Origin: a virus | Taxonomy: Duplodnaviria; Caudoviricetes | Direction: 5' to 3' (one strand) | IMG/VR virus record: IMGVR_UViG_3300047323_000320 | Coordinates: 484-64,483 of that record | DNA length: 64,000 nucleotides | In this document: positions 3,561-61,552 of the stretch, piece after piece | Numbering within the stretch: the stretch's first letter is position 1 | Layout: every line of letters starts with the position of its first letter | Notes under the pieces: generated by a model | Seen by the model: only the letters and a program-made list of their open reading frames with translations | What the model was told of the DNA's origin: nothing | Database searches by the model: none | Position numbers and translations under genes: made by a program

Positions 3561-4550
3561 TTAGGCGGTGAGAAGGTCGAGCACCTTCACTTTCAGTTTT
3601 TCGCCAGGACCGAACCATGCCGACTCCAGGCGGTTATCCTGGGACGTGGCGCGTACATGGTGATCGACAAACTCCGTTGCCGCGTTCAGCAGGCCCCATG
3701 CGGTGCCTTTCACGCCGTCAAGATTGGAGCCGCGCCCGCTGCCCTGGAAAAGGTCCATCATCTTTTTGAATGCTGCTTTCTCCTGCGCTTCCTGCACCTG
3801 CGCAGAGGTCAGCGTGTTAAAACGCTTGTCGGTCAATGCTTCGATCAGCACGCGTTCGGCCTTGTCGGCGCTAACACGTTCGCCCGCCAGCAGGCGCATT
3901 GTCCCTGCCCAGGCGTTGAACTCTTCGCGGCTAATGCCCAGTTCATCCTTCATCGCCTCCGCGTCAAACGTCGAGCGGTGGCTAATCTTCGCGTCAGCAC
4001 GGCCGCGCAATGCTGCGGTCATGGTGTTTTGGCAAACGACGCGAACCGTGGTGCGCTTGCCGGTTGTTGCCATGCTGCCGTCCGTCGCGGTTGCCAGCAG
4101 CAGATAGCCGCCTACCTTGTCGGCCGCGTTTTTGATCGTTGCCTCTGCACCGATCTTCGCGAGCGCCCAAAACTTGCGGCCGCCGTGCAACGTGCCGGCC
4201 GTTTCCAGGCTAAAGCCTGCCTGCGCCGTCAGATCGGCCATGAAGTCGAGAATCTCGCGCGGCTGAACAATCTTGAAGCGGGCCGACACGATGCCCAGGG
4301 AGTCTTTCGTATCCGAGCGCATCAGAACGCGCATGTCGTCAACCGTGCGCCATGCGTCGGCGCCCTGGCCGTAGCCGGTGGCATAGCGAACAAAGCCGGA
4401 TTGAATCTTCCAGTCCATCCCGGCGGCCGCCGCCCACTCTTCATGCGTGGCGCCTTCCTCCAGGCGTTCGCCCAGGCCGTGCCAGGGCGTGGCGCCGATA
4501 TAGGCCATTTCGGCTTTGCCGTTCGAGCGGATAGTAAGTGCGTGTGCCAT
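3561..4550 (-). CDS. DUF932 / TIGR03299-family phage-plasmid protein
   Basis: MAY.G.TPWHGLG, TAG.L.GG.KFWALA, RVVC.NT and GTAWGL.NA.TE.VDH motifs. Confidence 0.85.
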   Translation of the reverse strand: MAHALTIRSNGKAEMAYIGATPWHGLGERLEEGATHEEWAAAAGMDWKIQSGFVRYATGYGQGADAWRTVDDMRVLMRSDTKDSLGIVSARFKIVQPREILDFMADLTAQAGFSLETAGTLHGGRKFWALAKIGAEATIKNAADKVGGYLLLATATDGSMATTGKRTTVRVVCQNTMTAALRGRADAKISHRSTFDAEAMKDELGISREEFNAWAGTMRLLAGERVSADKAERVLIEALTDKRFNTLTSAQVQEAQEKAAFKKMMDLFQGSGRGSNLDGVKGTAWGLLNAATEFVDHHVRATSQDNRLESAWFGPGEKLKVKVLDLLTA

Positions 4551-4571
4551 GGTTAGAACCCTTGTTCGTGA

Positions 4572-4588
4572 ATTGAGAAAATGACAAT
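4572..4588. promoter_or_regulatory. Putative repressor operator ATTGAGAAAATGACAAT
   Basis: 17-bp dyad matching the sites at 4696, 57513 and 58361. Confidence 0.7.
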
Positions 4589-4695
4589 TGATCGAGTGGT
4601 GCGAATTTCCTTAAGGCCCGTCTTTCCCGCGCCCCGAAGGGTGATTGAAGAATAGGCTTATACAGCTAGTTGTACAGCTAGGGAAAACCCTACAA

Positions 4696-4712
4696 ATTGT
4701 CCTTTTCTCAAT
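4696..4712. promoter_or_regulatory. Putative repressor operator (minus strand ATTGAGAAAAGGACAAT)
   Basis: Same 17-bp consensus. Confidence 0.7.
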
Positions 4713-4801
4713 TTATTTGTGGGGTAACGCACACAAAACCGGCTCTCGCGGTTAATATCGGCCCTGGGAAATTGCCTCCTGCAATTCCACGAATCAATCA
4801 A

Positions 4802-5430: not shown

Positions 5431-5728
5431 CGTAAGTGACTGATTCTAAAGGGATTGTCACTGTTCGCTAGTGCCAGATCGCCAGAACAGGGCGCATTTG
5501 TGGCATTGCGTGGCGTTGCAGCGTGCGCCGCGTGGCGGATGTGGACGTGTGCCGAGCAGGCCGATCGAGCCGAGCCGCTGCGCTCCTGTGTCTCTGGGAA
5601 CGAATGAAAGGCGCCGGCCCAGGATGAGTTTTCGACCCCCCGGCATACCCCAAATTCGCCCGACTTGGGGCCCCCTTTTCGCTCGTGGGCGCAAACAGGG
5701 ACAAAAATTTTTAAAAAATTTTGACGCG

Positions 5729-5749
5729 CTGTTTAGGACCCCTTAACAG
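5729..5749. promoter_or_regulatory. Dispersed dyad motif CTGTTTAGG-N3-CCTTAACAG
   Basis: Recurs at 12833-12853 and 41889-41908, with half-sites elsewhere. Confidence 0.6.
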
Positions 5750-12796: not shown

Positions 12797-12872
12797 AAGC
12801 GGTATCGCGTCCACGCGCTTATAAACGGCTCGCTGTTTAGGAGCCCTTAACAAAACTCAGGAAGGGAAGATC

Positions 12873-18280: not shown

Positions 18281-18424
18281 ATGGCGACACAGGGTTACGG
18301 GACCAGTCCCGGCCGCAACTCCGCAAATGCAGTCGGTACGTCGCTCCCACGGTCGGTCACGACCAAGCCCGTGCCGCTGATCCTTTCCGCAATGAAAAAA
18401 CCTGTTAAGGGGAAGTCAAAATGA
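18281..18424 (+). CDS. 47-aa ORF whose N-terminus resembles the capsid N-terminus
   Basis: GGAG SD; MATQGYGTSPGRN...KGKSK; TGA overlaps the capsid ATG. Confidence 0.6.
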   Translation: MATQGYGTSPGRNSANAVGTSLPRSVTTKPVPLILSAMKKPVKGKSK

Positions 18425-31351: not shown

Positions 31352-34300
31352 ATGGCGGACAACTACTGGAACCAGTTCGACAAGCCCGCTTCGCCTGGCG
31401 CGGCGGGCGGTGGATCGGGCGCCGACTTTTGGGACCAGTTTGACGGTCCCGACCGGGGCCTCACGGGCGACGTGAAGGCCGGCCTTGCGCATACCGGCGT
31501 GAGCCTGCGCAACATGGCAGGCGGCGCCGAGAAATTCGTCGGTCGTGCGGCCGACGCCGCCGGCGATGCGTTCAACTCGGACACGTTGCACGGCATCGGC
31601 TCGCACCTGATGCAGTCAGGCAGCGACATGCAGAACGCGGCGGCCGCCAACGAAAACGGCAGCAACACGCTGGGCTTTGAAGGCCAGAACAGCACGCTTC
31701 GCCGCAACGCCTATGGCGTGGCGGACATGGGCGGCCAGATGGCCGTGGTAGGCGGTACGGGCGCGCTCGCGGGCGCGGCCGCTGGCGCCATGTTCGGCGG
31801 TGTGGGCGCAATCCCTGGCGCGATCCTCGGCTGGGGTATCGCCAACATTGCCGCGCTGCCGGCGATGCTGGGTCTCTCGCAGGCGTCGAACACGGCCGAC
31901 AAGGTGGAAGCGAAGGAGCTGGCTGACGGCAAGAGCGCGAGCGAAGCGAAGCACGATGCGCTGGCCGCCGGCGCAATGACGGGCGGTGAGACCGCGCTGG
32001 GCGCGGCCGCAATCGGCGCGCTGGGTCCGGTTGCGAAGCTCGTGGGCCGTGCCGCCACGGGCGCCGTGGTGGAAACTGCACTGCGCGCGACGGCGAAAGA
32101 CGTGGCGCTCGATACGGCCAAGGCGACCGCGCTGGGTTCGGCGGCCAACGTCGGACAGACGGCCGCGATCGAAGGCACTGAACAGGCGTACGGCGTGGGC
32201 GAAGGCCCGACCGCGCAAGGTCTCATCGACGCGGGTATCCAGGGCGCGGCAATCACGGGTCTCAGCCACGCACCGGGCGCCGCGCTGCGCGCGTCCAGCG
32301 CCGGGAAATATACCGGCCCCTTGCTGGACCCGCAGGCAGACCCCGAAGCGCGACAGAAAGCGGCGCTGGGCGCAATGGCCGTGATTGCCTCGCGCGATCC
32401 GGCACTCGCCAAAGACTTCGGCCTGTACGCGCAGGACCGCATCGCCAAGGGTTTGCCCATTGATCTTGGCGGGTCAGAAACCGTTGAGAATGCAGACGGC
32501 AAAACCACGGTCAAACGCGGCGACGACATTTACCGGGCCTTTGCACGCCAGCAGGAACAGGCGCAGGCCGACGCCGACACCGGCGCGACCCGTACGACGC
32601 AGGACGTGTCGCCGACGTTCGTGCCGACTGGCGACGAGCTGGCGGCCGCCAAGGGTCCGATCCAGGACAACGGCATTCCCGCTGCCCAGGGCCGCGACCA
32701 TCCCGACATCGTGACGCCGGACGGTCTCCCGACTGCTGCAAGTGGTACGCCGTCGTGGATGACGGCCGCCGCGAATCCGACGCTGCGCACGCCGGAACCG
32801 GAACCCGTGCCGCAATCGGCCCCGCCGTCGATTACCGACACCATCGGCACGATCATGCACGCGGGCTCGATTGATGAGGCCGTGGCGGGCGCCGAACAGG
32901 CGATTGGCGGCAGCGCGGCGGATATGGTCCATCGGGTCAACGCGATCGGCGAAGCGGCCGGCGTCGTCACGCCCGAGGGCGCCGAAGCGACGCCGAGCGC
33001 GGATAACCTGGCGACTGATCGCGCGTTTTTCGCGGACCAGGCGGACGCCGCGCAGCGCGACATGCGCCAGCAGGCATTCGACCAGGCACAGGCACAACCG
33101 ACGCCGGCCGTTCCGGCGGATGCGTTCGCCGCGCGTGAGGCGCAAGCACGGGCCGAAGCGCAGGCACAGCGCGACGCCGCGCACCAGCAGATGCAGCGCG
33201 ACCAGCTCGCGCAGCAGGCCGACACAGCGGGCCAGGTCTCGACCGCGACAGAAGCCGCTGCACCGCCCGCTGAAGCCCCGGCAATGTCGCGGGCCATGCA
33301 GGGCTCGCTGGACCGCGCAGCGGCCCGTATGCAAGGCGGCAAGCAGGTTTCGACGCTCGACCTTGGTATGCTGTCGCAGCATCATCCCGACCCGGCAATC
33401 CAGCAGCAGGCCGCGACTGCGCTGGAGCTGCGCAAGAACCGCGACATCGTGCAGCCTGTCGCAGAAGCGCCGCAAGGCGTTCGCGCAGCTGAGGCGGCCG
33501 AGCCGATCGGCGGCCGTCCTGGCGTCACGACCATCGACGCCGCCGGCGCGATGCGCCAGGGCGAACCGGGCGCGCAGTTCAGCCCCGCGCGTGGTGCCGT
33601 CGATCCGCGCGTGAAGGCCGTGCAGGACGCGGTAGACCAGCAGGCAGGTGAAGGCAAGGCCGCGCCGGCAGTCGTCCACGTCGACCCGGCGACATTGCCG
33701 GAAACACGCACGGCCGCGAACAACGGTGTAGAAGGCGCAACGACACTATCGAAGAGCGAGGCGGGCCTGTTGCAGAAGGCGGCCGGCATCTTCAATAAAA
33801 AGCTCGTGCTGTTCCGGCAGGAAGGGGGCGTGCCGCCGGATGGCATGGTCCTGAAGTCGGACCCGAAAACCATCTACATCAACGCCGACGCCGCGAGCGC
33901 GCATCACCTGGTTGTATTCGGGCATGAGCTGGCGCATCAGATGCGCACCGACGCGCCCAAGCTCTTCGACGCGATGCGCAAGTCTGTGCTGAAGGAGGCC
34001 GGCAAGGGCGCGCAAAGCGAGTTCATGCGGTACTACACGGGCAAGGACATGACGCCCGAGCAGATCAAGGCCGCGCTGGCAGACAAGCCCACGGCTGACC
34101 GCATGACCGAAGAGTTTGTGTCGGACCTCGTGGGCAACCGCTTCAGCGAGTACCGTACGTGGCAGCAGATTTTTGCGAACGCAGGCAAGGAAAATCGCGG
34201 GCTCGTGTATCGCATCGCCGACTACATTACGAAGTTCATTGACCATATCCTGGCCAATACTTCATTCAGGAAGTTCGCCACGGACGACATGGTGAACAAC

Positions 34301-41864: not shown

Positions 41865-41912
41865 ACCCCGATCCCACACTGGTCCCGCCCGTTAGGGCTC
41901 CTAAACAGGCAG

Positions 41913-47237: not shown

Positions 47238-47310
47238 GGGGACTGCCCGGTAAGAAAACCGTGGATTTTACAGCTAGTTGAGCTTCTGTTAATGAGATTT
47301 CAAAAGCTGG

Positions 47311-48227: not shown

Positions 48228-48454
48228 TGTGGATATCTCCAAGATTGGAGGGTTAACGATACGTCGTTTCGAATATGTCTGACGAAGGATCAAATATGGT
48301 TTACGTCGTTTCGAATATGGGTTTACGTCGTTTCGAATATGTCACATGTTTGAATTCATCAGCGTAAACAGTGCTTTGCCTTGGTTATCAACAGCCTATA
48401 AGCATTTCTTTAAGCATACTTATAAGCAGTAAACCGTCACCGCCCTGTGGACAA
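48228..48454. promoter_or_regulatory. Iteron-type plasmid origin
   Basis: TACGTCGTTTCGAATATG at 48260, 48302 and 48324, with a degenerate copy at 48281 (21-22 bp period). AT-rich TAAGCA repeats. DnaA-box-like 9-mers at 48228, 48385 and 48446. Confidence 0.85.
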
Positions 48455-49042: not shown

Positions 49043-49429
49043 TCAGCCAAGGTGTTCGCCGCGCTCAATGGCCGCTGCCAGAGCCGCCGCTGCAGGGGCC
49101 GTCGACTCAACAATCACATCGGTCATGGTCCGGCCGCCGAACTTCTCGATCAGTTGCAGGTTGTCGTACAGCTCTTCGGGGACACGAATGGTCATCGGAA
49201 TGCGCTTCGGCTTTTTCACCACGTAACGGCGAAAACCGCCCTGAACGGGCTGGACGGGTCCAGGTGGGGTCGACGTAGCCTCAACGACCGCCGTGCCCGT
49301 GGCGGGCTGATTTTGGGCCTCAGAAGCGATTTTTGCAGGCTCGCCCTTCTCTGCTTCCGCAATCCGGCGTGCGGCTTCCTGTTTTTCGGTCGGGCTCGGG
49401 GTCATGGGGGCGGGTTTTCTCGTACTCAT
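49043..49429 (-). CDS. Ribbon-helix-helix centromere-binding protein (ParG-like)
   Basis: Disordered N-terminus plus IPMTIRVPEELY..L.......TMTDVI; coupled to parA. Confidence 0.7.
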   Translation of the reverse strand: MSTRKPAPMTPSPTEKQEAARRIAEAEKGEPAKIASEAQNQPATGTAVVEATSTPPGPVQPVQGGFRRYVVKKPKRIPMTIRVPEELYDNLQLIEKFGGRTMTDVIVESTAPAAAALAAAIERGEHLG

Positions 49430-50064
49430 GCAAATAGCTCCTCAAACAGGGCGTTCAGGTTTTGTGTGGCCTTCCCCTCGGTGTCTGCCTCGGGCACAGC
49501 AAGGCCGCGCGTAATGGCGTCACGAAACACGCCCCGACCGACGAGCGCCGTTTCGCACGGCTGAAAGTATGCCATGTAGTTGTTAAGGGCAGCACGCGTG
49601 CTGCGCACATCTATGCTGTTCTTGTGATACGGCACGTTGTTCAGAACGATGCGCGACCGGAAGGCGATGCCGGCTGACTTGAAACTGTCGAGCATGGCGG
49701 TCATGTCGTCCAGCGCCCACACGTCGAACTGGCTGGGCGCCATGGGAACCACAAGGTCATCGGCAAATGCGAGCGCGTGGGCGGCTTCGGGGCCACGCTT
49801 CCCGCCGACATCCACTATAACCACATCGCTTTCAGTGCGCGCTGCTTCAAGGTCGCCCGTAATGTCGCCTGTGCCGACGCGGTAATGAACGCGTGGCAAT
49901 ACGCCCAGGTTGTCGCGCAGCAGGGACCACTTATGCGCGCTTCTCTGCCTGTCTGCATCGAATAGCGTAACCGTGCGCTTCCGTGCGGAGAACATGACGG
50001 CAAGGTTGGTAGACACGGTGCTTTTCCCCACGCCACCTTTCGGGTTGGCCACAACGATGAACAT
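49426..50064 (-). CDS. parA: ParA-family partition ATPase (type Ib, no N-terminal HTH)
   Basis: KGGVGKST, DAD.Q.S, VIVD.G and VP..PS.FD motifs. Confidence 0.92.
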   Translation of the reverse strand: MFIVVANPKGGVGKSTVSTNLAVMFSARKRTVTLFDADRQRSAHKWSLLRDNLGVLPRVHYRVGTGDITGDLEAARTESDVVIVDVGGKRGPEAAHALAFADDLVVPMAPSQFDVWALDDMTAMLDSFKSAGIAFRSRIVLNNVPYHKNSIDVRSTRAALNNYMAYFQPCETALVGRGVFRDAITRGLAVPEADTEGKATQNLNALFEELFA

Positions 50065-50344
50065 ACTTCCTCCTGTTTAGGCGCCCATAGTAGCGTGCCC
50101 TTAACAGGATGAACAAGTGGATTGTGTGCGGTCGCGCTCGTTGGGCGTATGTATTGCTGTACGTATGTACGTAAGGAAGGGGAAAGGTATGGCGTCACGG
50201 CCCCCTGGCCATGTCAGCAGGGGGCCGTGACTAGGCTGCCACGCTTGCTATTTAACACCGGCGGCGAGCCGCTACCGGCGGGCGCTTGTGAGCGGGCTTT
50301 GTGTCGGGGCCTGCCTCGGGCCCGTGGGTGCGCCCCGTGGGTAA

Positions 50345-51742
50345 TCAGTTCGTGGCGCTGCGGGGTTCGATCAGGCGGCGCTCGCCAATCACGTTCTCGG
50401 CCAGCATGCGCAGGGCCTCCCAATAGGCCCAGCCCGGTTGCGACGGGTCCATGCCCATGTCCCAGGTCAGGACCGCGTGGGCGAGGGAGCCGGCTTCCTG
50501 CGTCTGCACGTCCGGCGGCGCCAGGCGCGGCCAGAACACCGGGTTGTCCTCGCCCAGGCTGTTGTGAATCTGCGAGGTCGACATACTGGCGGGAAACGCC
50601 TTGTGGTGCCAGCCCTGGATCATGTGCGGACTGTCGCCGCGCGCCTCGATGTATACATAGACGTGCGTATGCTCGGCTTCGCGTACGTCGAAACGTACCT
50701 CCACCAGCTCATAGGTGCTATCGGCCATTCTTCGGTCCTTCTTGTGTATGTGGGGTTGCGTCGCTCTCACGGCGACGTGGAACGTTCAGGCTGCTCACCA
50801 CGTAATCACCTGCCGGCACCACATAGAAAAAGCGGCTCTCCAGGCAAACGGGGCGAGCGTCCTCCGCGCATTGTACGAAGTACCTCGTACGCAGTCGCGC
50901 AGAATACATCCACATGACCATGAACAGCACCATCCCCAGCAACGCACCGTAGTAGAAATCGTCAGTCACCGCCCCAGCCCCCGCCGCAGTCGCTCGATGA
51001 AGAGCCGCTGTCGCTGCTCGATGAGCTGCTGTCGCACGACGATGAGCTGACGCCGTAGTCGATGTCGCTGGAGCTGGGCCGCGCGTCGCAGCTGCCGGCG
51101 ATCGGCGATAGGGATTCCGTTGCCGGTGCGGGCACGAAATGAACCGTGCTGCCATTGGCCATGCGCCACGTTTCCGTCACATCAGGCTCGTTGTTCACAT
51201 AACGCGAACTGGAAGAGTTCACGGAATGCGAAGTGTGGTACTTGTGGCAGCGGCCGCAGTATTTGTGCTTGATGTCGTTGCTGTTGTACGACGCGCTGCC
51301 GCACTGGTCGCAGCGGATCGCGCGGCCGTTGTCAATCATGGTGTAGCTCATGTTCTCTCCTTTGCCTGTGCCGCCTGAACGCGGCCTAATAAACGTTCGA
51401 ACCGTTGCTTCTCGGCTTCGCACACTTCCAGTTCCTCGGCGTATTCAAACACGTCGGGGCAGCTGCCGATATGCATTTGCACGTCGCTGATGGCATGCGA
51501 CAGCGCGCATGCAACCAGTTCTAGGTTCTTGCCCGTGAAGCGCATCTAAGCCTCTCCATGTATTCATTCCACTCGCGCTCGCAGCGGTCGCACGAGTCGC
51601 CGTAAAACTCCACTTCCACGGCCGTCAGAATCTCGCCGCACTCGCTGCAGGCCCGGTAGGCGCACACCAGGCAGCGGTAGTGCGGCATGCCCACGTCCTC
51701 GGCGTACTGACAGTTCGGCCCGCCCTGGGCACAGGTCGTCAT
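50345..51742 (-). CDS. Five small hypothetical genes (50345-50728, 50718-~50965, 50962-51351, 51348-51545, 51521-51742)
   Basis: Coupled ORFs. 50962-51351 has CxxC...CxxCH and a Ser/Gly tail; 51521-51742 is Cys-rich. Confidence 0.6.
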
Positions 51743-52431
51743 GCGACCGCCCGCAGCAGCGCGTCGAACGGTCCCGCGTAGACGCCCAGGCGCCGCGCTT
51801 CGATCACCGCGTGGTATTTCTGGAAGTGGCGCGCGTGGCGCTCGCGCGGCGTGAGCAGCACGCGTTTCACGTCGAACCCGTTGCCCAGCGTAAAACGCGG
51901 CGTCTGCTGGCTGCGGTGGCCCACGCGGTCATAGCCACACACGCGCATGCGCTGCAGCGGCACCACGCCTTCGCGCATGAGGCGCACGAAGCGGCCCACG
52001 CCCGATATGGTGAGCCCGCTGAACGCGGCCATTTCGTGAATGTTCATCGGCCCGTTGGTGGCCAGCTCCAGCACGAGTGCATGGCGCGCGGCGTGCCGGT
52101 TCTTGCGCTTGCGGTCGGGCGCATAGCGGCCCACGCGCACAATCTTCGCGTCAGGGGCGTCGCCGATCCCGTACAGGGGAATGTGAGGCCCCGCGCCCAC
52201 GGGCGGCTCCCAAGCCGCTATACGCACGCGTGGCAGGCCCGGTACACCCTTCTTCAGGTGGCGCATGTACTTCGACATGCCCTCATGCCCCAGGAACACG
52301 AGTGGCGAGAGCTGGCGCGCGGTCATCGGGCCGTGCTGCTGGAGCGCGGCGACGATGCGTTTTTCGCCCCGGTACTTCGGGAAGTTGTACGCACCGCCGC
52401 GCTTGCGTTTGGGTTCAGCTGCGTTCGCCAT
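51739..52431 (-). CDS. Tandem winged-HTH-like DNA-binding protein
   Basis: Two internal repeats GPM...L/M...G..Y/F.R....G...R. Confidence 0.6.
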   Translation of the reverse strand: MANAAEPKRKRGGAYNFPKYRGEKRIVAALQQHGPMTARQLSPLVFLGHEGMSKYMRHLKKGVPGLPRVRIAAWEPPVGAGPHIPLYGIGDAPDAKIVRVGRYAPDRKRKNRHAARHALVLELATNGPMNIHEMAAFSGLTISGVGRFVRLMREGVVPLQRMRVCGYDRVGHRSQQTPRFTLGNGFDVKRVLLTPRERHARHFQKYHAVIEARRLGVYAGPFDALLRAVA

Positions 52432-54835: not shown

Positions 54836-56128
54836 TCATTCAACGGGTTCGAAGCCTTCAGCGGCTTTCGCTTTGTCATCCAGCTCGGGCCTGGGGTCGG
54901 TCTCATCCACGAGAACCGGCTTGCCGCGCGGCTTCGTGATGTACTCGCCCAGCAGGGCCTCAAACTTTTTCTTGCCTTTGAGCAGCGCGGTCATGTCCGT
55001 GATACCCAGCAGCTTCTGCTTCAGGTACTGCTCGGGTTTGAAGCCTTCGAGCGCGAGCGCCGTCTTAACTGCACCTTCATCCGTGTACTTGCGATTGGCG
55101 CGGCCTTCAACGAGCTTTTTGCCCTTGAACTTCTTGCCCTTTCCTGCCTCTTCGAGCGCCCATGTTTCCAGGTCGCCCGCCCACTTCTGCAAGTGCTGCG
55201 CTTCCGCGAGGCACTGGATTACTTCATCGTCCGTCAACAGCGCCGGCTCGCGGAACTGGTAAATCGTCATGGCTCTCATCCGTTCGTTGCGCTCGCGGCA
55301 GTGAACCTTCGCCTTGCAGAACTGGCACGCTTCGGCGTCCGAAGCGTTGAATTCCACGTTACTCAGGTCTCCGGTTTCCATCGCGTGCCACACGCGGTCG
55401 GCGGTCGGCTTCACGCGGCTTTCCGCCCACTCCAGCAACTCGGCAACGGAAATTTCCCACTGCGCGATGTTGTTGATGCGCGGCTGGTACAGGTTCAGCA
55501 CCACGCGCTTCAGGTCAAACAGATGCCGGAACATGTTCCAGGCGCCCAGCGCGTACAGCATCAGCTGCACGTTTTCTTCCACGCCTACGAACACGCCCTT
55601 GCCATACTTCAGGTCCGTCACGTCCAGCACTTCGTCACTGATAATCACGCAGTCGCCGGTTCCGAATCCTTCCGGGACCCAGGGCGAGAAGTCCACGCGC
55701 TGCTCAATGAAAACGATCGCGTCGGGGTTGCGCTGCTTTGCTTCCTCGATACGGCCCTGCACGTAGTCGATGTAGTCCTGAACGTACTCCTGCATGTCGG
55801 CGGGGTAGGCCGTTTCAAGCTCTTCGAGTGCTTCATCGCGCAGGTCCCAGGCGCGCTGAATGACCGTGGCTTCTGCCAGGCCTTCCAGCATTACGCACAG
55901 GCCCCACTCGATGTCTACACGTTTGCGCTCCAGCCATTCGTGCGCAGTAAGTCCTGCTTCCAGAGCCTCGCCGGCCCATGTGTGGGCTCGGGTTCCTTCC
56001 TCGGAGAATGAGCTGGCCTTGTCAGCGAATCCCAGCTCAGCCCAGGCAGATGCAGTGCAATGCATCCACCGATGAGCCCCACTAGCAGATAGCTTGGCGT
56101 GCGCACGCGGATTTTCATGAACGCTCAT
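54836..56128 (-). CDS. DUF2800 Cas4-like PD-(D/E)xK exonuclease
   Basis: HA.LSASGA.RW..C, EGT.AH, GFGT.D, DLKYG.G, QLMLYALGA and C.FC. Confidence 0.88.
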   Translation of the reverse strand: MSVHENPRAHAKLSASGAHRWMHCTASAWAELGFADKASSFSEEGTRAHTWAGEALEAGLTAHEWLERKRVDIEWGLCVMLEGLAEATVIQRAWDLRDEALEELETAYPADMQEYVQDYIDYVQGRIEEAKQRNPDAIVFIEQRVDFSPWVPEGFGTGDCVIISDEVLDVTDLKYGKGVFVGVEENVQLMLYALGAWNMFRHLFDLKRVVLNLYQPRINNIAQWEISVAELLEWAESRVKPTADRVWHAMETGDLSNVEFNASDAEACQFCKAKVHCRERNERMRAMTIYQFREPALLTDDEVIQCLAEAQHLQKWAGDLETWALEEAGKGKKFKGKKLVEGRANRKYTDEGAVKTALALEGFKPEQYLKQKLLGITDMTALLKGKKKFEALLGEYITKPRGKPVLVDETDPRPELDDKAKAAEGFEPVE

Positions 56129-56544
56129 TGCCCCTGCGCAGCATCGCCGTGCACCGTTGCGTCGTTCGCCGCGACGCCAGTGACACGCTCGATGCTCGTT
56201 CCGCCGATCTTGTCCATCAGCTCGGGCAGGACCTCGCACACGGCCGCAAGGAAACGATGGCACGGGTTGTACGGGTCGAACTCCTGCGAGCCGATGAGTA
56301 CGCCCTGAATGGCCAGTTCGAACTCGCCGGTCTCTTCGTGCTTCTTCAGCATGCACTGAACGACGGTCGAGCCTTCCGGCAGCGTCGGCAGGTTCTTGAG
56401 TGCTTCGGCCTGTTCGTTCAGCTCTGCGTGCAGCTCGGTCAGCTCTGCGTGCAGCTCGGCGTGGGCCTCACTTGCCGCCGGCGCAACGAATGTGACGCCT
56501 GCAGCATCTTCTTGTGTGTTGGTCTCTTCGCGAATGTCGGTCAT
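56125..56544 (-). CDS. Acidic hypothetical protein
   Basis: Coupled ORF; AELH repeats. Confidence 0.7.
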   Translation of the reverse strand: MTDIREETNTQEDAAGVTFVAPAASEAHAELHAELTELHAELNEQAEALKNLPTLPEGSTVVQCMLKKHEETGEFELAIQGVLIGSQEFDPYNPCHRFLAAVCEVLPELMDKIGGTSIERVTGVAANDATVHGDAAQGQ

Positions 56545-56551
56545 GGTCTGT

Positions 56552-57085
56552 TTAGCTCAGGTTGTGTTGTGCTGCAGCTGCCTTGAAGTCCGCGAGTGCG
56601 CTGACGCGGATGATGTTGTCCCGCTCGGCGAGCGCCGTGACGCTGGCCGCGTCGTGCTTGGCCAGGATCGCCAGCGCAATCTCGCGCAGCTCGTCGGTGT
56701 TGAAGAGGCGTGCGATCGCACGGATGTCCTCAATCTTCACTTCGTCGGCCGGCTTCCCAGAATCCTGGGAACCCTCGAGAACGGCTTTTGCCTGCGCGAT
56801 GACTGCCGACTGGTCTGCCGTCGCGGTTTCGGCCGGTTCGGTCCTGACTTCTTCGGCGGCCGGCGCACGCCTGCGGCGCGGCTTCTCGGCGGGCATCACT
56901 TCGGCAGCAGCGGCCGCCGGCGTTTCAGCAGCGACGACCCGCTCCTGCGGCGCGGCGGTAGGCTCGGGCTGGCCGCGCGTCAGGATGTACTCTTCGGTCG
57001 CTTCATCGACGTAGGCTCGCAACGCAGACAGCACAGCGCGCAGCATGCCCGGTGTCTCGAAGCCGTTAAGCTCGATAGACAGCAT
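56552..57085 (-). CDS. Hypothetical protein, first long gene of the pL operon
   Basis: GAGG SD before MLSIELN; helical C-terminus typical of genes upstream of DUF2800. Confidence 0.7.
   Translation of the reverse strand: MLSIELNGFETPGMLRAVLSALRAYVDEATEEYILTRGQPEPTAAPQERVVAAETPAAAAAEVMPAEKPRRRRAPAAEEVRTEPAETATADQSAVIAQAKAVLEGSQDSGKPADEVKIEDIRAIARLFNTDELREIALAILAKHDAASVTALAERDNIIRVSALADFKAAAAQHNLS
56751..56789 (-). repeat. 39-bp repeat, copy 2
   Basis: Inverted relative to 34594-34632. Confidence 0.85.
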
Positions 57086-57230
57086 GGTTTTCCTCGGGAA
57101 TGGGTCAGACTCGGCGGCCGTGGACGGCGCGCTCGTAGAAATACAGGAAGGATTTGTTGCGGATTTGGACGTGCATTTTATGTAGGCTCTCAGGTTCAAC
57201 GGGTTCAACAGTTTCAACACAACTACAAGC

Positions 57231-57508
57231 AGTCCTAAACAGACGGTGGCGCCGGTTTCCCGCTTTTGACCACGGCCGCCGCTGGGGTGAAGAGCCCCAG
57301 CACGGGCAGCGGCAGGGCGGGAACCGACAGAAGTGGGCGCGCCCCATCGTTGGTGGCGGGTAGAGGCCCGCTCGCGCCCACTTCTTTCGGTTCCTGCAGT
57401 CCTGAGAATCTTCAGGTCACAGCGCAGCGTGGCCTGTGCGTGACGTGAGAGGTATCAGTGTTCACGGTTTAGGACTTACGTTCGCGCGCCGTGACCTGAA
57501 GATTCTCA
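57231..57508 (-). ncRNA. Putative structured leader RNA or small RNA
   Basis: 18-bp stem 57403-57420/57491-57508; 21-of-22-bp stem 57320-57341/57373-57394; 7-bp stem 57281-57287/57295-57301. Confidence 0.5.
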
Positions 57509-57512
57509 AGCG

Positions 57513-57529
57513 ATTGAGCTTTTCTCAAT
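57513..57529. promoter_or_regulatory. Operator overlapping the putative pL (extended -10 TGGTAGAAT on the minus strand)
   Basis: ATTGAGCTTTTCTCAAT dyad. Confidence 0.7.
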
Positions 57530-57539
57530 TCTACCACCT

Positions 57540-57576
57540 AAAAATTGCCCCGAACCGTTCCTGCGAATCGGGGCAA
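57540..57576 (-). terminator. Terminator after the repressor gene
   Basis: TTGCCCCGA...TCGGGGCAA followed by a T-run on the minus strand. Confidence 0.6.
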
Positions 57577-57685
57577 GTGGTGTGATAGGAATGTAGCCGG
57601 TGTTTTTTCCGACCGCAAGGGGATTTCGTAAATATTCTTACGAACTGATACAAACCTGTCCTTGCATGCTGTTAAGGGGCAGTGT

Positions 57686-58303
57686 TTACCCCCGCTTGAA
57701 CCAGTCGATTGTAGTGGCAGATTTGACCGGAATATCCACCAGCTGCCGCTTGGACAAGGGGTGCGTCAGTGTGTACAGGCCGTCCGCTGTGCCCCGTGAC
57801 AGCTCGCCGAACAGGGGTTTATCCTCATCGACGTAGGCCACGACAATCTGACCGACGCAGTGATAAAGCTCCAGCGCGCCGAAGCTCACGAAGCAGACCA
57901 TGTGCGACCAGTACGAATTGGGAAAATCGGTACTTCTTACCCTGAACGCCCAGGAATCGCTGGGCAGGCCAGGCGGTGCGGGAATCATCGCGAATGGCTG
58001 CGGCGCGGGGACCAGCTGGCAGTCGTCCATCGCCAGGCAGGTGAGCGCAATGAGCGGACTTTCCAGCGTCGGCGGGAAGCCCCAGCGCGCCATGATTTCA
58101 GCGGTCGGGACCTTGATGATGTCGCTTAACTTCTTGAGTTCATTCAGGTTTAGCTTGCGCTCGCCCTTCAGCGTGTAGCTCAGCGTCGCCGGGTCAATCT
58201 TCATCAATGCCGATACATCCTTCTGCGAAAGATTGCGCCGCCTGAACTGCTCCAGTATCCAGACCCTATCGGGCGCCCCCGGTTTTTTCGGCTCGTTACT
58301 CAT
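57686..58303 (-). CDS. CI-like HTH repressor
   Basis: LSQKDVS.LM.ID.ATLS..LKGERKL (XRE HTH); divergent from the cro-like gene. Confidence 0.8.
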   Translation of the reverse strand: MSNEPKKPGAPDRVWILEQFRRRNLSQKDVSALMKIDPATLSYTLKGERKLNLNELKKLSDIIKVPTAEIMARWGFPPTLESPLIALTCLAMDDCQLVPAPQPFAMIPAPPGLPSDSWAFRVRSTDFPNSYWSHMVCFVSFGALELYHCVGQIVVAYVDEDKPLFGELSRGTADGLYTLTHPLSKRQLVDIPVKSATTIDWFKRG

Positions 58304-58360
58304 GTTGAAGCCCCTTTTGCATAGTAATGACATTGTGTAATATCGACGCCTTAACGACCG

Positions 58361-58377
58361 ATTGAGAAAATCTCAAT
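58361..58377. promoter_or_regulatory. Operator between cI and cro, ATTGAGAAAATCTCAAT
   Basis: Near-perfect dyad in the divergent intergenic region. Confidence 0.75.
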
Positions 58378-58416
58378 TCTGCTGCCTCATTTTGCCCCCT
58401 TTCCCTGCCCTTAACA

Positions 58417-58719
58417 ATGACAAAGACCAAACCCAAAGCTGGCAAGCGTTCGGTGCCGAACACTGCCGCACAATCGGCGCGTCGGGTGAACGACGCCGAA
58501 CCCGCGCATTCGATCATCAGAAAGCTCGGCGGCGTTCGCGCGCTGGCTGCAGCGGTAGGCGTGTCGCCGGCGGCGGTGACGCGCTGGCAGACCCACAAGA
58601 CGGACGCGGACAGAAATGGCTGCGACGGTGTGATCCCGGAATTCCGGCGCGCGGCGGTGATTGCGGCCGGACGCGCGATGCGTCGGCGCGTGACCAAGGC
58701 TGAATTCATCAAGTCGTAA
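58417..58719 (+). CDS. Cro-like HTH protein
   Basis: II.KLGG..ALA..VGVS..AV.RW....G.IP. Confidence 0.8.
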   Translation: MTKTKPKAGKRSVPNTAAQSARRVNDAEPAHSIIRKLGGVRALAAAVGVSPAAVTRWQTHKTDADRNGCDGVIPEFRRAAVIAAGRAMRRRVTKAEFIKS

Positions 58720-58787
58720 CGTGCGTAACCCAGCAGGGGTGCGCCGCAGGGCGGCACTGTACCTGTTTTCGACTTGTGGAGCCATGC

Positions 58788-61292
58788 ATGCAGCAGAACG
58801 AAACACCCGTGGCGCGGCGGCCGACCGCGCTGAAGTTCCGCGCCGATACGGTCCCCCTGTATCTGCGGGGACTGCGGCGCTGGTGCGTCTGGAAGTACAC
58901 CCAGGTCGCCAGTGGCAAGTGGACCAAGACACCGATCAACGCCCGTACTGGCGGCGGTGCGATGTCCAACAATCCTTCCACCTGGTCGACATTCGAAGAA
59001 GCGCAGGCCGCGCTGCTGGATAACCGCGAGCTGGCGGGGCTTGGGTTCTTTCTCGGTGACGGCATTATCGGCGTGGATGTCGACAAGTGCCTGGATGAGT
59101 GCCTGGACTGGAATGCGCTGGCCGCTCGCGTGCTGGCAGAAGTCCCTGGCTACGCAGAAATTTCGCCTTCGGGGCGGGGCGTCAAGATCATTACTCGGGG
59201 CACGATTCCCCAAAGCAAGGCAGACCATAAACAGGGGCTCGAAGTCTATGACGGCACGCGCTTCTTTGCGGTAACGGGTCATGCCGTGCCGGGTCGGGAC
59301 AATGCCATCCCTGAGTCGCCCATCAACCTTGCACCGTTCTTTGTCGCGCACTTCGGTTCCTATACCCCTGGGAGCGGGGTCGATGACGAAGATATGTCGG
59401 CGCTTGCGAATGCCAAGGGGCCGCTCGCAGGATGGTCGCTTGAACGTGTGCGCGACGAGCTGCTGCCGCATCTGTCGAGCGATAACCACTACTCGGAGTG
59501 GATCGAGATTGGCGCGGCCCTGCACCATCAGGGGGAAGCCGACGACGAGTGGCTGGAGCTGTGGGACGCGTGGAGCGCGGAGGCCGGCGAGCGCTATACG
59601 CCGGGGCTCTGTGCCGATAAGTGGGAAACCTTCGGCGGCGACGCGAGTGGGCGCAAGCTCATTACGCTCGCCACCATCATCATGCGCGTCAAGAAGGCCC
59701 GCAGCGCCGAGCGCTTTGGCCGCGTGGATATGTGGAAGCAGCAGATCAACGCGACGGCGGATCGTGAGGAATTGCTGGACGCTTTGCCCGCGAAGATCGC
59801 GCGCGACGTGCTGGTGGACGACCGGATCAGGGAAGAATTGGCGCAATGTCTCAAGCGGCGCCTCAAAGAGGTATTGCAGACGCCTTATTCGATAGTGAAG
59901 GTGCGGGGCTGGCTCACACCTGTGGTTGAAGTTTCTCAGGATTACCTTACGCCAGAGTGGCTGAAACCTTACGTGTATGTCACGGACGAAGATCGTTTTT
60001 TCGATACCGTGCGAAAGGTACGGTATACGCGGCAAAGTTTCAACGTCATGCATAACCGCGACATGCCCCGCAATGATAATGGCGACCCGGTAAAGCAGGC
60101 TGCGGACGGCGCGGCGGACCTGTATGGAATCCATACGGTGCGCAGTGCCATCTATCAGCCGGCAGCGGGCCTGTTCTTCGACATGGACGGCGTGAGCTGC
60201 GTGAACACCTACGACGACTCGCAGGTTCCTGCGATGCCGCCGGTGCTGCTCGATGACGAAGAGCGCGCCGTCGAAATTGTTAAACAGCACATCGCAAACA
60301 TCCTGCCCGATGCGCGCGAGCGCCAGCTTTTTACCAACTGGCTGGCCTATGTCGTGCAGAACCCTGGCCTGAAAATCCGCTGGGCGCCGTATCTGTGCGG
60401 CGTGCCAGGCGACGGTAAATCGTTCTTCGTGTCGCTGCTGGGCGCTGCCATGGGCACCGCGCATGTGAAGGCTATGAACGGCGACATGCTCGCCTCGGGC
60501 TCCAGTTTCAGCGACTGGTCGGTCAATCGCTGCGTGACCGTGATCGAGGAAGCCAAGCTGCACGGTCAGAACAGGTTCGACGCGGCCAACCGGATCAAGC
60601 CATTTATCACCAACCCGGTGATCGACGTCCATCCGAAAGGGCGCGCGAGCTACAACGCGCCCAACACGGTGCAGTACATGGTGCTGTCGAACTACCTGGA
60701 CGGCATGCCGGTGACGGACGACGACCGGCGTTTCATGTTCCTGCAAACGGGGTTCAGCCTTGAATCGCTGCGCCGCTTCAAGCAGGCCAATCCGAATTTC
60801 TACACACGCCTGTTTGACGCCGTGGCGGACTATCCCGGCGCAATGCGCTACTGGCTCATGCACTTCCAGGACTGGCACCCCGACTTCACGCCGGATGGTA
60901 ACGCACCGCTCACAGAGACGCGGGAACTGGTGATCGACATGGGTGAGAGTGACGCAGATTCGGCGGTGCGTACGGTGTTCGCCGACAAACCCGGCGGGGT
61001 CACGGGTTCGTATGTGGCAGCGGGTTCGTTTGCGTCGGCGGTCTACGAGCAGCTGGGTCCGGCGAGCGGGTACAGACGCGCGCAGATCGGCCGCCTGGTC
61101 ACGGACTTCCTGCGGGCGCAGGGCTATCGCATCGCGGGCAAGGAGCGGCCGCGCCTCGGACCCAGGCGCGAGCAGTCCGCCATCTGGCGGCACGAATCCC
61201 ATACGCCGGACTCACTCGGCTGGCTTGAGGAAGCCAAGCAAGTGATCGAGAAATCCTTTGCAGACGCGGCCGCGCGCGACTTTCTGGACTGA
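58788..61292 (+). CDS. Primase-helicase (AEP-like N-terminus, PriCT-2, SF3/DUF5906 helicase)
   Basis: GVDVDKC, EISPSG.G, W..IGAALH, Walker A GVPGDGKS and IEE. Confidence 0.88.
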   Translation: MQQNETPVARRPTALKFRADTVPLYLRGLRRWCVWKYTQVASGKWTKTPINARTGGGAMSNNPSTWSTFEEAQAALLDNRELAGLGFFLGDGIIGVDVDKCLDECLDWNALAARVLAEVPGYAEISPSGRGVKIITRGTIPQSKADHKQGLEVYDGTRFFAVTGHAVPGRDNAIPESPINLAPFFVAHFGSYTPGSGVDDEDMSALANAKGPLAGWSLERVRDELLPHLSSDNHYSEWIEIGAALHHQGEADDEWLELWDAWSAEAGERYTPGLCADKWETFGGDASGRKLITLATIIMRVKKARSAERFGRVDMWKQQINATADREELLDALPAKIARDVLVDDRIREELAQCLKRRLKEVLQTPYSIVKVRGWLTPVVEVSQDYLTPEWLKPYVYVTDEDRFFDTVRKVRYTRQSFNVMHNRDMPRNDNGDPVKQAADGAADLYGIHTVRSAIYQPAAGLFFDMDGVSCVNTYDDSQVPAMPPVLLDDEERAVEIVKQHIANILPDARERQLFTNWLAYVVQNPGLKIRWAPYLCGVPGDGKSFFVSLLGAAMGTAHVKAMNGDMLASGSSFSDWSVNRCVTVIEEAKLHGQNRFDAANRIKPFITNPVIDVHPKGRASYNAPNTVQYMVLSNYLDGMPVTDDDRRFMFLQTGFSLESLRRFKQANPNFYTRLFDAVADYPGAMRYWLMHFQDWHPDFTPDGNAPLTETRELVIDMGESDADSAVRTVFADKPGGVTGSYVAAGSFASAVYEQLGPASGYRRAQIGRLVTDFLRAQGYRIAGKERPRLGPRREQSAIWRHESHTPDSLGWLEEAKQVIEKSFADAAARDFLD

Positions 61293-61297
61293 CGGGC

Positions 61298-61545
61298 TGA
61301 GCCAGTGGCGGTCGCCCCGCCAGGAAAACCCCCACTGGCTCACAACTCTCTCAAAGCACTATCTCACCCTGCAAACCCTTACTGCTATTGCCTTTTACCC
61401 CTTTCTTTTATTTGAGTGAGTGAGTGAGTAAGTGAATAGAAGAGAGAAGAGAAATAAAAAGTAAATAGTAGAAAACAGGCAATAAAAAACAATTTCCCTA
61501 TAGGGGCAGCGGTTTTCCCCGGAAATCATCACAGTCACTCATCAG
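61298..61545. promoter_or_regulatory. Candidate lytic origin
   Basis: 11-bp inverted repeat, (TGAG)4 run and a purine-skewed AT-rich tract right after the primase gene. Confidence 0.45.
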
Positions 61546-61552
61546 CGAAATC

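Follow-up and report, generated by a model that had tools for sequence, protein, structure and literature searches.

Twin hairpins with conserved pairing in the putative early-left leader of a phage that is most likely kept as a plasmid

The gap of 600 bases between a cI-like repressor gene and gene 1, the first gene of a leftward operon, was analyzed in a virus of the Caudoviricetes. The sequence examined, hereafter the window, is a stretch of 64,000 nucleotides (nt), out of the 64,483 bases of IMG/VR record IMGVR_UViG_3300047323_000320, a virus record rated 100% complete. The gap contains two long hairpins, designated HP1 and HP2, whose helices have kept their pairing in a relative by means of two-sided base changes and which stand at a fixed position behind a candidate promoter. 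The region was tentatively read as a cis-acting structured leader RNA, in which helices of 22 to 28 base pairs (bp) could serve ribonuclease III (RNase III)-type processing, with a conserved C-rich, rut-like tract downstream of them. This possibility is favored here without being held with confidence.

Two hairpins and the conservation of their pairing

The hairpins were recovered by an inverted-repeat search as follows:

57403..57508, minus strand: HP1, arms 57403-57425 and 57486-57508, 23 nt, 96% complementary, with a 60-nt loop
57317..57397, minus strand: HP2, arms 57317-57341 and 57373-57397, 25 nt, 92% complementary, with a 31-nt loop

Across the noncoding sequence of the 64 kb, no local inverted repeat ranks above these two. 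An earlier note on this DNA had described an 18-bp perfect stem extendable by G-U on the minus strand only, and the search returned exactly this: HP1 is perfect over 18 nt (57403-57420/57491-57508), and it departs from Watson-Crick pairing solely at 57421/57490, which reads G-U on the minus strand and A-C on the plus. In the predicted fold the stem extends to up to 28 pairs. HP2 has 23 pairs with two 1x1 mismatches, and the 21-of-22 stem of the same note lies inside its arms. The minus-strand folds were calculated at -57.3 kcal/mol for HP1 (z -8.2) and -54.2 kcal/mol for HP2 (z -6.3), with 0 of 200 shuffles as stable in either case, whereas the 60-nt loop of HP1 folded alone gave a z of 0.18 and is thus predicted to be unstructured. 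For the whole leader, z was -6.1 (minus strand) and -7.1 (plus strand). The alternative pairing of 57253-57263 with 57317-57326, also noticed before, comprises 10 pairs and a 1-nt bulge, and it forms in the fold when the 5' arm of HP2 is left out.

A relative was found only with an alignment of gene 1 homologues (17 of 18 proteins; P0023, with 71% coverage, was left out), which identified locus L004 in a 66,517-base virus record (G001), also 100% complete. No useful relative was obtained when the leader and repressor were searched with blastn and tblastn against phage and plasmid collections, when the repressor, gene 1 and exonuclease were searched as single proteins against viral contigs, or when a repressor alignment of 9 proteins was searched against genome, viral and metagenome contigs. 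The same was true of DNA-pattern searches with the HP1 18-mer arm, the composite motif described below, the operator unit and the HP2 arm. The operator-unit searches gave one chance match each, and the only match to the 18-mer arm in the sequence collection was unrelated coding sequence. Between the window and G001, the repressor is 30% identical, the cro-like protein 68% and gene 1 50%. The order in L004 is that of the window, namely, primase, cro-like gene, repressor, terminators, TGgTATTAT, HP1, HP2, a longer variable stretch, heptads, the C-rich tract and gene 1. There, HP1 occupies 2432-2453/2512-2533 (22-nt arms, 58-nt loop) and HP2 occupies 2535-2553/2589-2607 (19-nt arms, 35-nt loop), with fold z values of -3.9 and -5.2, respectively, and 0 of 200 shuffles as stable.

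When the window pairs were imposed on a pairwise alignment of the two leaders (48 pairs, 91 cells), pairing was kept in 91.2% of the cells. Two-sided changes were observed at 10 of the 48 pairs, five in each helix, and one-sided changes at none; 31 pairs were invariant, and the remaining 7 departed by unpaired cells only. An eleventh swap, of the outermost G-C to C-G, was concealed by an alignment gap. Sliding the partner by 1 to 3 columns gave 0 or 1 two-sided change, and the observed value was reached by 2 of 500 shuffles. Because ten double changes occurred with no single change, the pattern would be hard to obtain otherwise than by selection for pairing in both helices. Conservation of sequence was found in the inner stem of HP1 and the adjoining loop bases (GCGArnGUAAGUCC and GGCCrCGCUGCGCUG) and in the core of HP2, AGAAGUGGGC (given also as AGAAGTGGGC), together with a conserved A-G mismatch. 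As judged from this comparison, it is the helices rather than the loop sequences that are conserved.

Soil-metagenome contigs of a closer relative, which are short and of low depth, were ~99% identical to the window over 57269-57637 (1 difference in 152 positions; 1 difference and 2 indels in 222). The same contigs differed at 15 of 151 positions in cI (~90% identity) and at 29 of 149 in cro (~80%). A layer of early-gene control that is independent of immunity specificity is indicated, because the module has stayed while the repressor has diverged to 30% identity between the window and G001.

Leader context and the proposed processing

On the minus strand, the order of elements is candidate promoter P1, terminator T2, an extended -10 with a palindrome, HP1, HP2, HP3, GTTTAGGACT, three 9-nt units, the C-rich tract and the ribosome site of gene 1. 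Their positions are as follows:

57590..57618, minus strand: candidate promoter P1, TTGCGG (57618-57613), 17-nt spacer, TACATT (57595-57590); 8 of 12 matches, under the scan threshold; TTGACG-17-TACATT in L004
57540..57576, minus strand: intrinsic terminator T2, 9-bp closing stem TTGCCCCGA/TCGGGGCAA and then TTTTT; homologous hairpin and T-run in L004 at 2366-2389 (scan)
57528..57536, minus strand: candidate leftward early promoter P2, extended -10 TGgTAGAAT; TGgTATTAT in L004
57511..57539, no strand assigned: 29-nt repeat unit with the operator-like palindrome O1 (TTGAG-N5-CTCAA, 57514-57528); second copy at 58359-58387
57281..57301, minus strand: HP3, GCUGGGG, 7-nt loop, CCCCAGC; not alignable in L004
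57191..57219, minus strand: three tandem 9-nt units, TGTTGAAAC, TGTTGAACC and CGTTGAACC
57086..57215, minus strand: C-rich, G-poor (rut-like) leader tract, C/G 1.8-1.9
56552..57085, minus strand: gene 1, open reading frame of 177 amino acids, no assigned function

Terminator T2, a strong terminator by its sequence, would end the transcripts of cI and of candidate promoter P1 directly before the leftward promoter. Behind it, the spacing from the -10 of P2 to the first base of HP1 is 19 nt in both the window and L004, such that both genomes share the series terminator, TGgTAnnAT, 19 nt, HP1. The -10 abuts the palindrome that the earlier note had called the pL operator. The palindrome is exact at 57514-57528 and again at 58362-58376, within the 29-nt direct repeat, and fits a repressor operator. 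We infer P2 as the promoter and the minus strand as the functional strand because the terminator and the conserved extended -10 lie at a fixed distance on that strand, and a promoter-like site was not found on the plus strand in 56900-57700 or at the corresponding place in L004.

Downstream of the hairpins, the C/G ratio of the C-rich tract is matched by none of the 142 coding-sense 80-nt windows of the window genome (0 with a ratio of at least 1.8). The counterpart in L004, at 2840-2960 just before gene 1, has a C/G ratio of 1.7-2.6 (2840-2940), with 0 of 166 coding windows reaching 1.8. The conserved tract before gene 1 is therefore described as a candidate Rho loading site. At the place of the 9-nt units, L004 has two direct TGTTAAG copies and CTGTTGAAAAC.

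In the mechanism proposed here, the region would form the 5' leader of an early transcript that runs leftward under repressor control. Transcription would start ~12 nt before HP1, at the extended -10 promoter overlapping the operator, and the nascent RNA would fold at once into HP1 (23-28 bp around an open loop of 60 nt) and HP2 (~23 bp). Helices of this kind are ordinarily read in the cell by RNase III, which requires double-stranded RNA (dsRNA) of about 20 bp or longer. Near-continuous dsRNA of this length is found in both HP1 (23 contiguous pairs, 28 predicted) and HP2 (23 pairs), and processing sites are proposed because near-perfect dsRNA of two full turns is an RNase III substrate. Recognition as dsRNA is also indicated because the helices are longer than terminators or most protein sites need; complementarity is perfect at 22 positions, presumably more than a protein half-site needs. 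From these features we infer cleavage that would remove the 5' end of the 19-kb early-left message and thereby govern how stable the message is or how it passes the C-rich, Rho-loading-like tract. HP1 may also give rise to a hairpin-closed RNA of roughly 90 nt.

Among the closest known systems are the RNase III hairpins of the lambda N leader and the T7 early region, which likewise have long near-perfect stems of about two turns just behind an early promoter and keep structure over sequence. In lambda, the structure of the N leader masks the ribosome site. The window differs from these in that the first start codon is 230-420 nt away from the stems and is not masked by them, in that two different hairpins with 60- and 31-nt loops stand in tandem, and in that cleavage is here only proposed. 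No Rfam family was found for the twin-hairpin motif, Rfam being the one resource in which prior descriptions were sought. The twin hairpins are a candidate for a new leader motif, of a general kind that is known, and, as judged by sequence, not a member of the phage P1 C4/P4 CI family. If confirmed, the module would add a new cis-regulatory RNA motif, so far uncatalogued, from the immunity region of a little-known group of soil phage-plasmids, and would offer a case for how long leaders, RNase III and Rho-type attenuation combine in temperate phages outside the enterobacterial models.

Other identities for the hairpins were considered and rejected. A T-run after HP1, HP2 or HP3 was found on neither strand, the sole such terminator being T2, upstream of HP1; with no U-run, HP1 and HP2 were ruled out as a terminator or attenuator. 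A miniature inverted-repeat element or inverton was also ruled out, as the HP1 arm is single copy in the window, its flanks (GTCC/AGCG) show no duplication and a recombinase was not found. The 600-base gap gave no codon-position G+C signal or periodicity, which excluded a coding gene in the leader, and no tRNA or tmRNA was found.

Several minor observations were made on the promoter region. Candidate promoter P1 appears to read into T2, an arrangement kept in L004 (2291-2396). The resulting transcript, between cI and the leftward promoter, would be ~44 nt in the window and ~70 nt in L004 and might represent a small RNA or, like lambda 6S, a terminated leader. In L004, a 22-nt inverted repeat (86% complementary) connects 1407-1428, in the 5' coding part of the cro-like gene, with 2330-2351, in the body of this short candidate transcript. 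The two RNAs would share the same sense, and a counterpart of equal strength was not found in the window. Elsewhere in the window, two degenerate operator-like copies (AATTGAGAAAAnnnCAATT), at 4571-4589 and 4695-4713, lie on either side of the promoter region belonging to a DUF932 gene (3561-4550), and this third locus may therefore belong to the repressor regulon. Between these two sites are TACAGCTAGTTG repeats, with one further copy at 47269.

Points against the processing leader, and alternative readings

Several points weigh against the processing-leader reading. With the hairpins 230-420 nt from the first start codon, the ribosome site would not be masked, unlike that of the lambda N leader. 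Candidate promoter P2 was not detected by a two-hexamer promoter scan, and among the sequencing runs listed as holding the stretch, none is on record as RNA. The covariation comes from two sequences only and is a count, not a statistic, and hairpins in single-stranded DNA would give the same compensatory pattern. A 10-nt complement between the HP1 loop and the leader stays unexplained by processing. The strand is also in question, since the plus-strand folds are as good or better (-58.4 versus -57.3 kcal/mol for HP1; -61.2 versus -54.2 kcal/mol for HP2), as are the folds of the opposite strand compared with the sense strand in L004 (-60.0 versus -57.8 and -44.8 versus -43.9). The earlier note had used the G-U pair to argue for the minus strand. 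For HP1 in the window the argument holds, and the G-U at 57490/57421 is conserved in L004, but over both genomes it fails: the non-Watson-Crick cells on the sense strand are 2 G-U, at that same position, and 5 A-C/C-A, and these five become G-U on the other strand.

The loop complement is defined by two segments:

57467..57476, minus strand: HP1 loop segment AGUCCUAAAC, the proposed seed
57231..57240, minus strand: leader segment GUUUAGGACU, the proposed target, a copy of the CTGTTTAGG(A) motif

The earlier note had reported this match as exact, together with mRNA-sense matches in the leaders of terS, gene 12873 and polA, and both observations were reproduced: the 10-nt complement is perfect, as good a match was found in 2 of 300 loop shuffles, and the other three leaders match 9, 8 and 8 nt of the loop, respectively. 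An antisense second immunity layer was proposed from this, in which an RNA derived from HP1 would present AGUCCUAAAC and pair with GUUUAGGACU 226 nt downstream, as well as with 8-9 nt in the terS, gene 12873 and polA leaders, in the manner of phage P1 C4, P4 CI and N15 CA. The loop is predicted to be accessible (AAAC fully unpaired, CCU weakly paired), the predicted duplex energies are -16 to -17 kcal/mol at three sites, and the target is at the 5' boundary of the rut-like tract. The loop copy is also the sole motif copy that points against local transcription, and the two leader copies share ACT past the 7-8-nt core, which the other copies lack. We nevertheless consider such a layer unlikely, as the complement is not conserved. 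The conserved part of the HP1 loop is GUAAGUCC (57479-57472), of which GTAAGTCC is kept in L004, and the pairing bases UAAAC (TAAAC) of the window read CAGGG there. The longest Watson-Crick match of the L004 loop to its own leader is 6 nt, a length reached by 299 of 300 shuffles. In the rest of G001, complements to the AU-richer part of that loop occur as single 9-mers (at 33856 and 49448), never as two or more overlapping ones, and the G+C-rich parts of the loop match many sites. The L004 loop is strongly folded, unlike that of the window, and in RNAduplex runs of whole loops against leaders, G+C-rich chance duplexes dominated. Thus, the covariation that the earlier note had named as a check was seen in the helices (10 two-sided and 0 one-sided changes) and not, in the one relative, in the complement.

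The notion of several targets was not supported either. What the loop matches in other leaders is a genome-wide motif, CTGTTTAGG(A), which there joins CCCTTAACA as a near-palindrome, and pairing with the loop does not explain the conservation of the motif, because the five canonical copies carry CTG where the loop complement needs CGG. In addition, HP1 has no terminator of its own, and because its promoter bears the repressor's operator, the RNA would be absent in a lysogen unless the promoter leaks. Membership in the C4/CI/CA group was not borne out. A cmscan of 56000-59000 with E values up to 10 gave two chance-level, unrelated matches, the whole window gave 0 at the gathering score, and no Rfam family, C4 included, was matched. 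The likeness is one of arrangement: as with phage P1/P7 C4, P4 CI and N15 CA, the element is noncoding and heads an operon under the primary repressor, the phage is plasmid-like, as are P1 and N15, and the loop in this lineage is complementary to a downstream leader site. The c4-icd-ant operon of phage P1 is repressed by C1 (PMC8198154), so that there, too, c4 heads a C1-repressed operon. On the other hand, the closing stem in the window is 23-28 bp, compared with a short, tRNA-like acceptor stem in the C4 group, there is one complementary box rather than two, and that one is absent in the relative. The downstream genes are for recombination and replication, with no antirepressor recognized among them. 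A feature of the C4 family is a stable processed RNA of ~70-80 nt that depends on RNase P. Of the RNA-based immunity proposed earlier, what stands is a conserved, structured element with which the leftward early operon begins, directly behind a repressor-type operator and a promoter; what does not is the loop-leader pairing, which is not conserved in L004. By the sequence evidence, the complement is real in this lineage and outside the conserved design, and an antisense design would be at best peculiar to the window's lineage. In a combined form, RNase III would free the hairpin-closed HP1 RNA of ~90 nt, whose open loop would mask CUGUUUAGGA at the heads of the early-left, terS, 12873 structural and polA operons. 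This version is quite improbable. If true, it would make the RNA a master switch coupling early transcription to late and replication gene expression, a lineage-specific, multitarget antisense immunity on a conserved processing scaffold.

The remaining alternatives concern the strand, the nucleic acid and the reader of the helices. A functional RNA could come from the plus strand, antisense to the leader and directed toward the 3' end of cI, with GTTTAGGACT in the HP1 loop as a further sense copy of the motif. The slightly better folds in both genomes, the five cells that would be G-U there (versus two on the sense strand) and the shared sense of the loop copy and the other motif copies all agree with it. 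Neither a promoter-like site (56900-57700 or the L004 counterpart) nor a terminator was found on that strand, the conserved G-U at 57490/57421 becomes a conserved A-C mismatch and the conserved promoter-HP1 spacing belongs to the minus strand, which together make a plus-strand RNA hard to credit. Alternatively, the helices could act as single-stranded-DNA hairpins, as priming or initiator-loading signals of a lytic origin activated by repressor-controlled transcription, beside the 9-nt repeats and an A+T-richer stretch. Compensatory change would be equally expected and neither strand favored, three tandem 9-nt units and a stretch of 51% G+C lie downstream, the primase-helicase gene is 1.3 kb away and the cumulative GC skew has its minimum at ~56 kb. 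However, that minimum coincides with a switch of transcription direction, loops of 31-60 nt would disfavor cruciform extrusion and the tight, conserved spacing to the promoter with the preceding terminator suits a transcript better. Better candidates for an origin or centromere also exist in the window, namely, a 21-bp x 3.9 array at 48260-48341 near parA and a repeat-rich gap at 61293-61552 after the primase gene, and an origin at the hairpins is accordingly rated as rather unlikely. About as doubtful, or slightly more so, is a cis antitermination RNA of the HK022 put kind, which would bind RNA polymerase and allow read-through of the Rho-type tract and terminators along the 19-kb operon without a phage protein. 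As in HK022, two adjacent stem-loops that keep structure over sequence directly follow an early promoter, ahead of a long all-minus operon (57085 to ~38258), with a conserved rut-like tract and candidate Rho site just behind them. A NusG-like gene was sought and none was found, which fits this reading and ruled out NusG/RfaH-type recognition. Unlike put, of which related copies stand behind both early promoters, the window and G001 each have one copy, a further pair of long hairpins being found neither behind the rightward promoter nor elsewhere in either genome, and the helices are much longer and more regular than put stems. The searched libraries contain no put model. The processing leader remains the favored, tentative reading.

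A genome-wide motif and the setting of the leader

The window contains five copies of GTTTAGGA (5731+, 12835+, 41899-, 57233- and 57467+), compared with a shuffle mean of 0.45 and with 0 of 100 shuffles reaching 5. This motif belongs to the two most over-represented 9-mers of a k-mer census, CCCTTAACA (7 copies, 0.12 expected) and CTGTTTAGG (5 copies, 0.14 expected). These stand 9 nt apart before terS (5730) and gene 12873 (12834) and, in degenerate form, before polA (41907), and 23 nt apart before parA (50074/50098). The composite TGTTTAGG-N3-CCTTAACA is an imperfect palindrome with the half-site TGTTWAGG. The sites are as follows:

5729-5748: motif pair before terS
12833-12852: motif pair before gene 12873
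41890-41908: degenerate pair before polA
50073-50106: motif pair before parA
18403-18411: single copy before the capsid gene region (18411)
49581-49589: single copy inside parA (49589)
57670-57678: single copy after cI (57678)
58408-58416: single copy abutting the cro start codon (58408)
57231-57242: single copy in the leader (57241)

Each of the 12 canonical copies is oriented with the downstream gene or local transcription, and the HP1-loop copy alone is reversed, reading GGTTTAGG rather than the CTGTTTAGG found elsewhere. Near-palindromic heptads of the GTTTAGGA type at operon starts are probably protein-binding DNA sites and probably make up a heptad operator system under a global regulator. 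In G001, GTTTAGG is not enriched (1 copy), and TGTTAAG/CCTTAAC heptads occur in direct, inverted and everted intergenic arrays; CCCTTAACAATG marks the cro start there, such that the arrangement of a motif at the cro start is common to both phages. The cro-like helix-turn-helix (HTH) protein is a reasonable candidate binder of the conserved heptad because it is 68% identical between the phages, compared with 30% for the repressors. The motif, rather than the hairpins, resembles the heptad operators of omega of pSM19035 and of KorA/KorB of RK2 in its direct, inverted and single short repeats at many operon starts, including the partition operon and the candidate regulator's own gene. It differs in that the binder is only a candidate and in that 12 of 12 canonical copies point with local transcription. 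Such a motif would suggest a plasmid-type global regulator acting on the late, replication and partition operons of a phage. As a separate motif, AGAAGTGGG was ruled out, since its additional copies fall within genes, as Lys-Trp codons. A phage RNA polymerase promoter was set aside on the weak ground that Pfam RNA_pol has no match in the window, there being none in the control genomes either.

The genes around the leader and the partition gene are as follows:

57686..58303, minus strand: cI-like XRE-family repressor, 205 amino acids; Pfam HTH_3 (3.7e-07), PHROG transcriptional repressor
58417-58719, rightward: cro-like HTH gene
58776-61292, rightward: primase(-helicase) gene, 1.3 kb from the leader hairpins
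49426-50064: small ParA-type ATPase

Eight repressor homologues were found (50-88% identity), one of which, at 73%, is named by its source as Paraburkholderia youngii. Gene 1 has 17 homologues, several of which share contigs with repressor homologues; it has no Pfam family, only a weak PHROG match and no reliable Atlas match. The leftward operon (~19 kb) consists of minus-strand genes only. The window, with a G+C content of 62.7%, also encodes a DNA polymerase A, a primase-helicase, a PD-(D/E)XK exonuclease and a gp2.5-like single-strand-binding protein. Tyrosine and serine recombinase genes (integrase, resolvase) were sought among the window proteins, and none was found. Because ParA is present and an integrase was not found, the phage is most likely temperate and kept as a plasmid. 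No close relative was found in phage and plasmid collections, the terminase and polymerase matches all being below 60% identity.

Some further repeats were observed. The top motif of G001, TTGCGTACCTTTG, has five copies within 2 kb (50198-52087, L007), all on one strand, with no such motif prominent in the window. An A/T palindrome, CAAAAATTTTTAAAAAATTTTG, lies directly upstream of the motif pair before terS (5702-5723) and is conserved in kind in G001 at ~56575-56610. In the window, the 21-bp x 3.9 array and a 12-bp array (48397-48428) lie in a 1.2-kb gap beyond the partition genes and are candidate iterons or a candidate centromere of the plasmid prophage. Upstream of parA, on the opposite strand, the interval 50107-50231 contains a hydrophobic mini-open reading frame of 21 codons, directly following CCCTTAACA, and a 14-bp perfect hairpin at 50194-50207/50218-50231.

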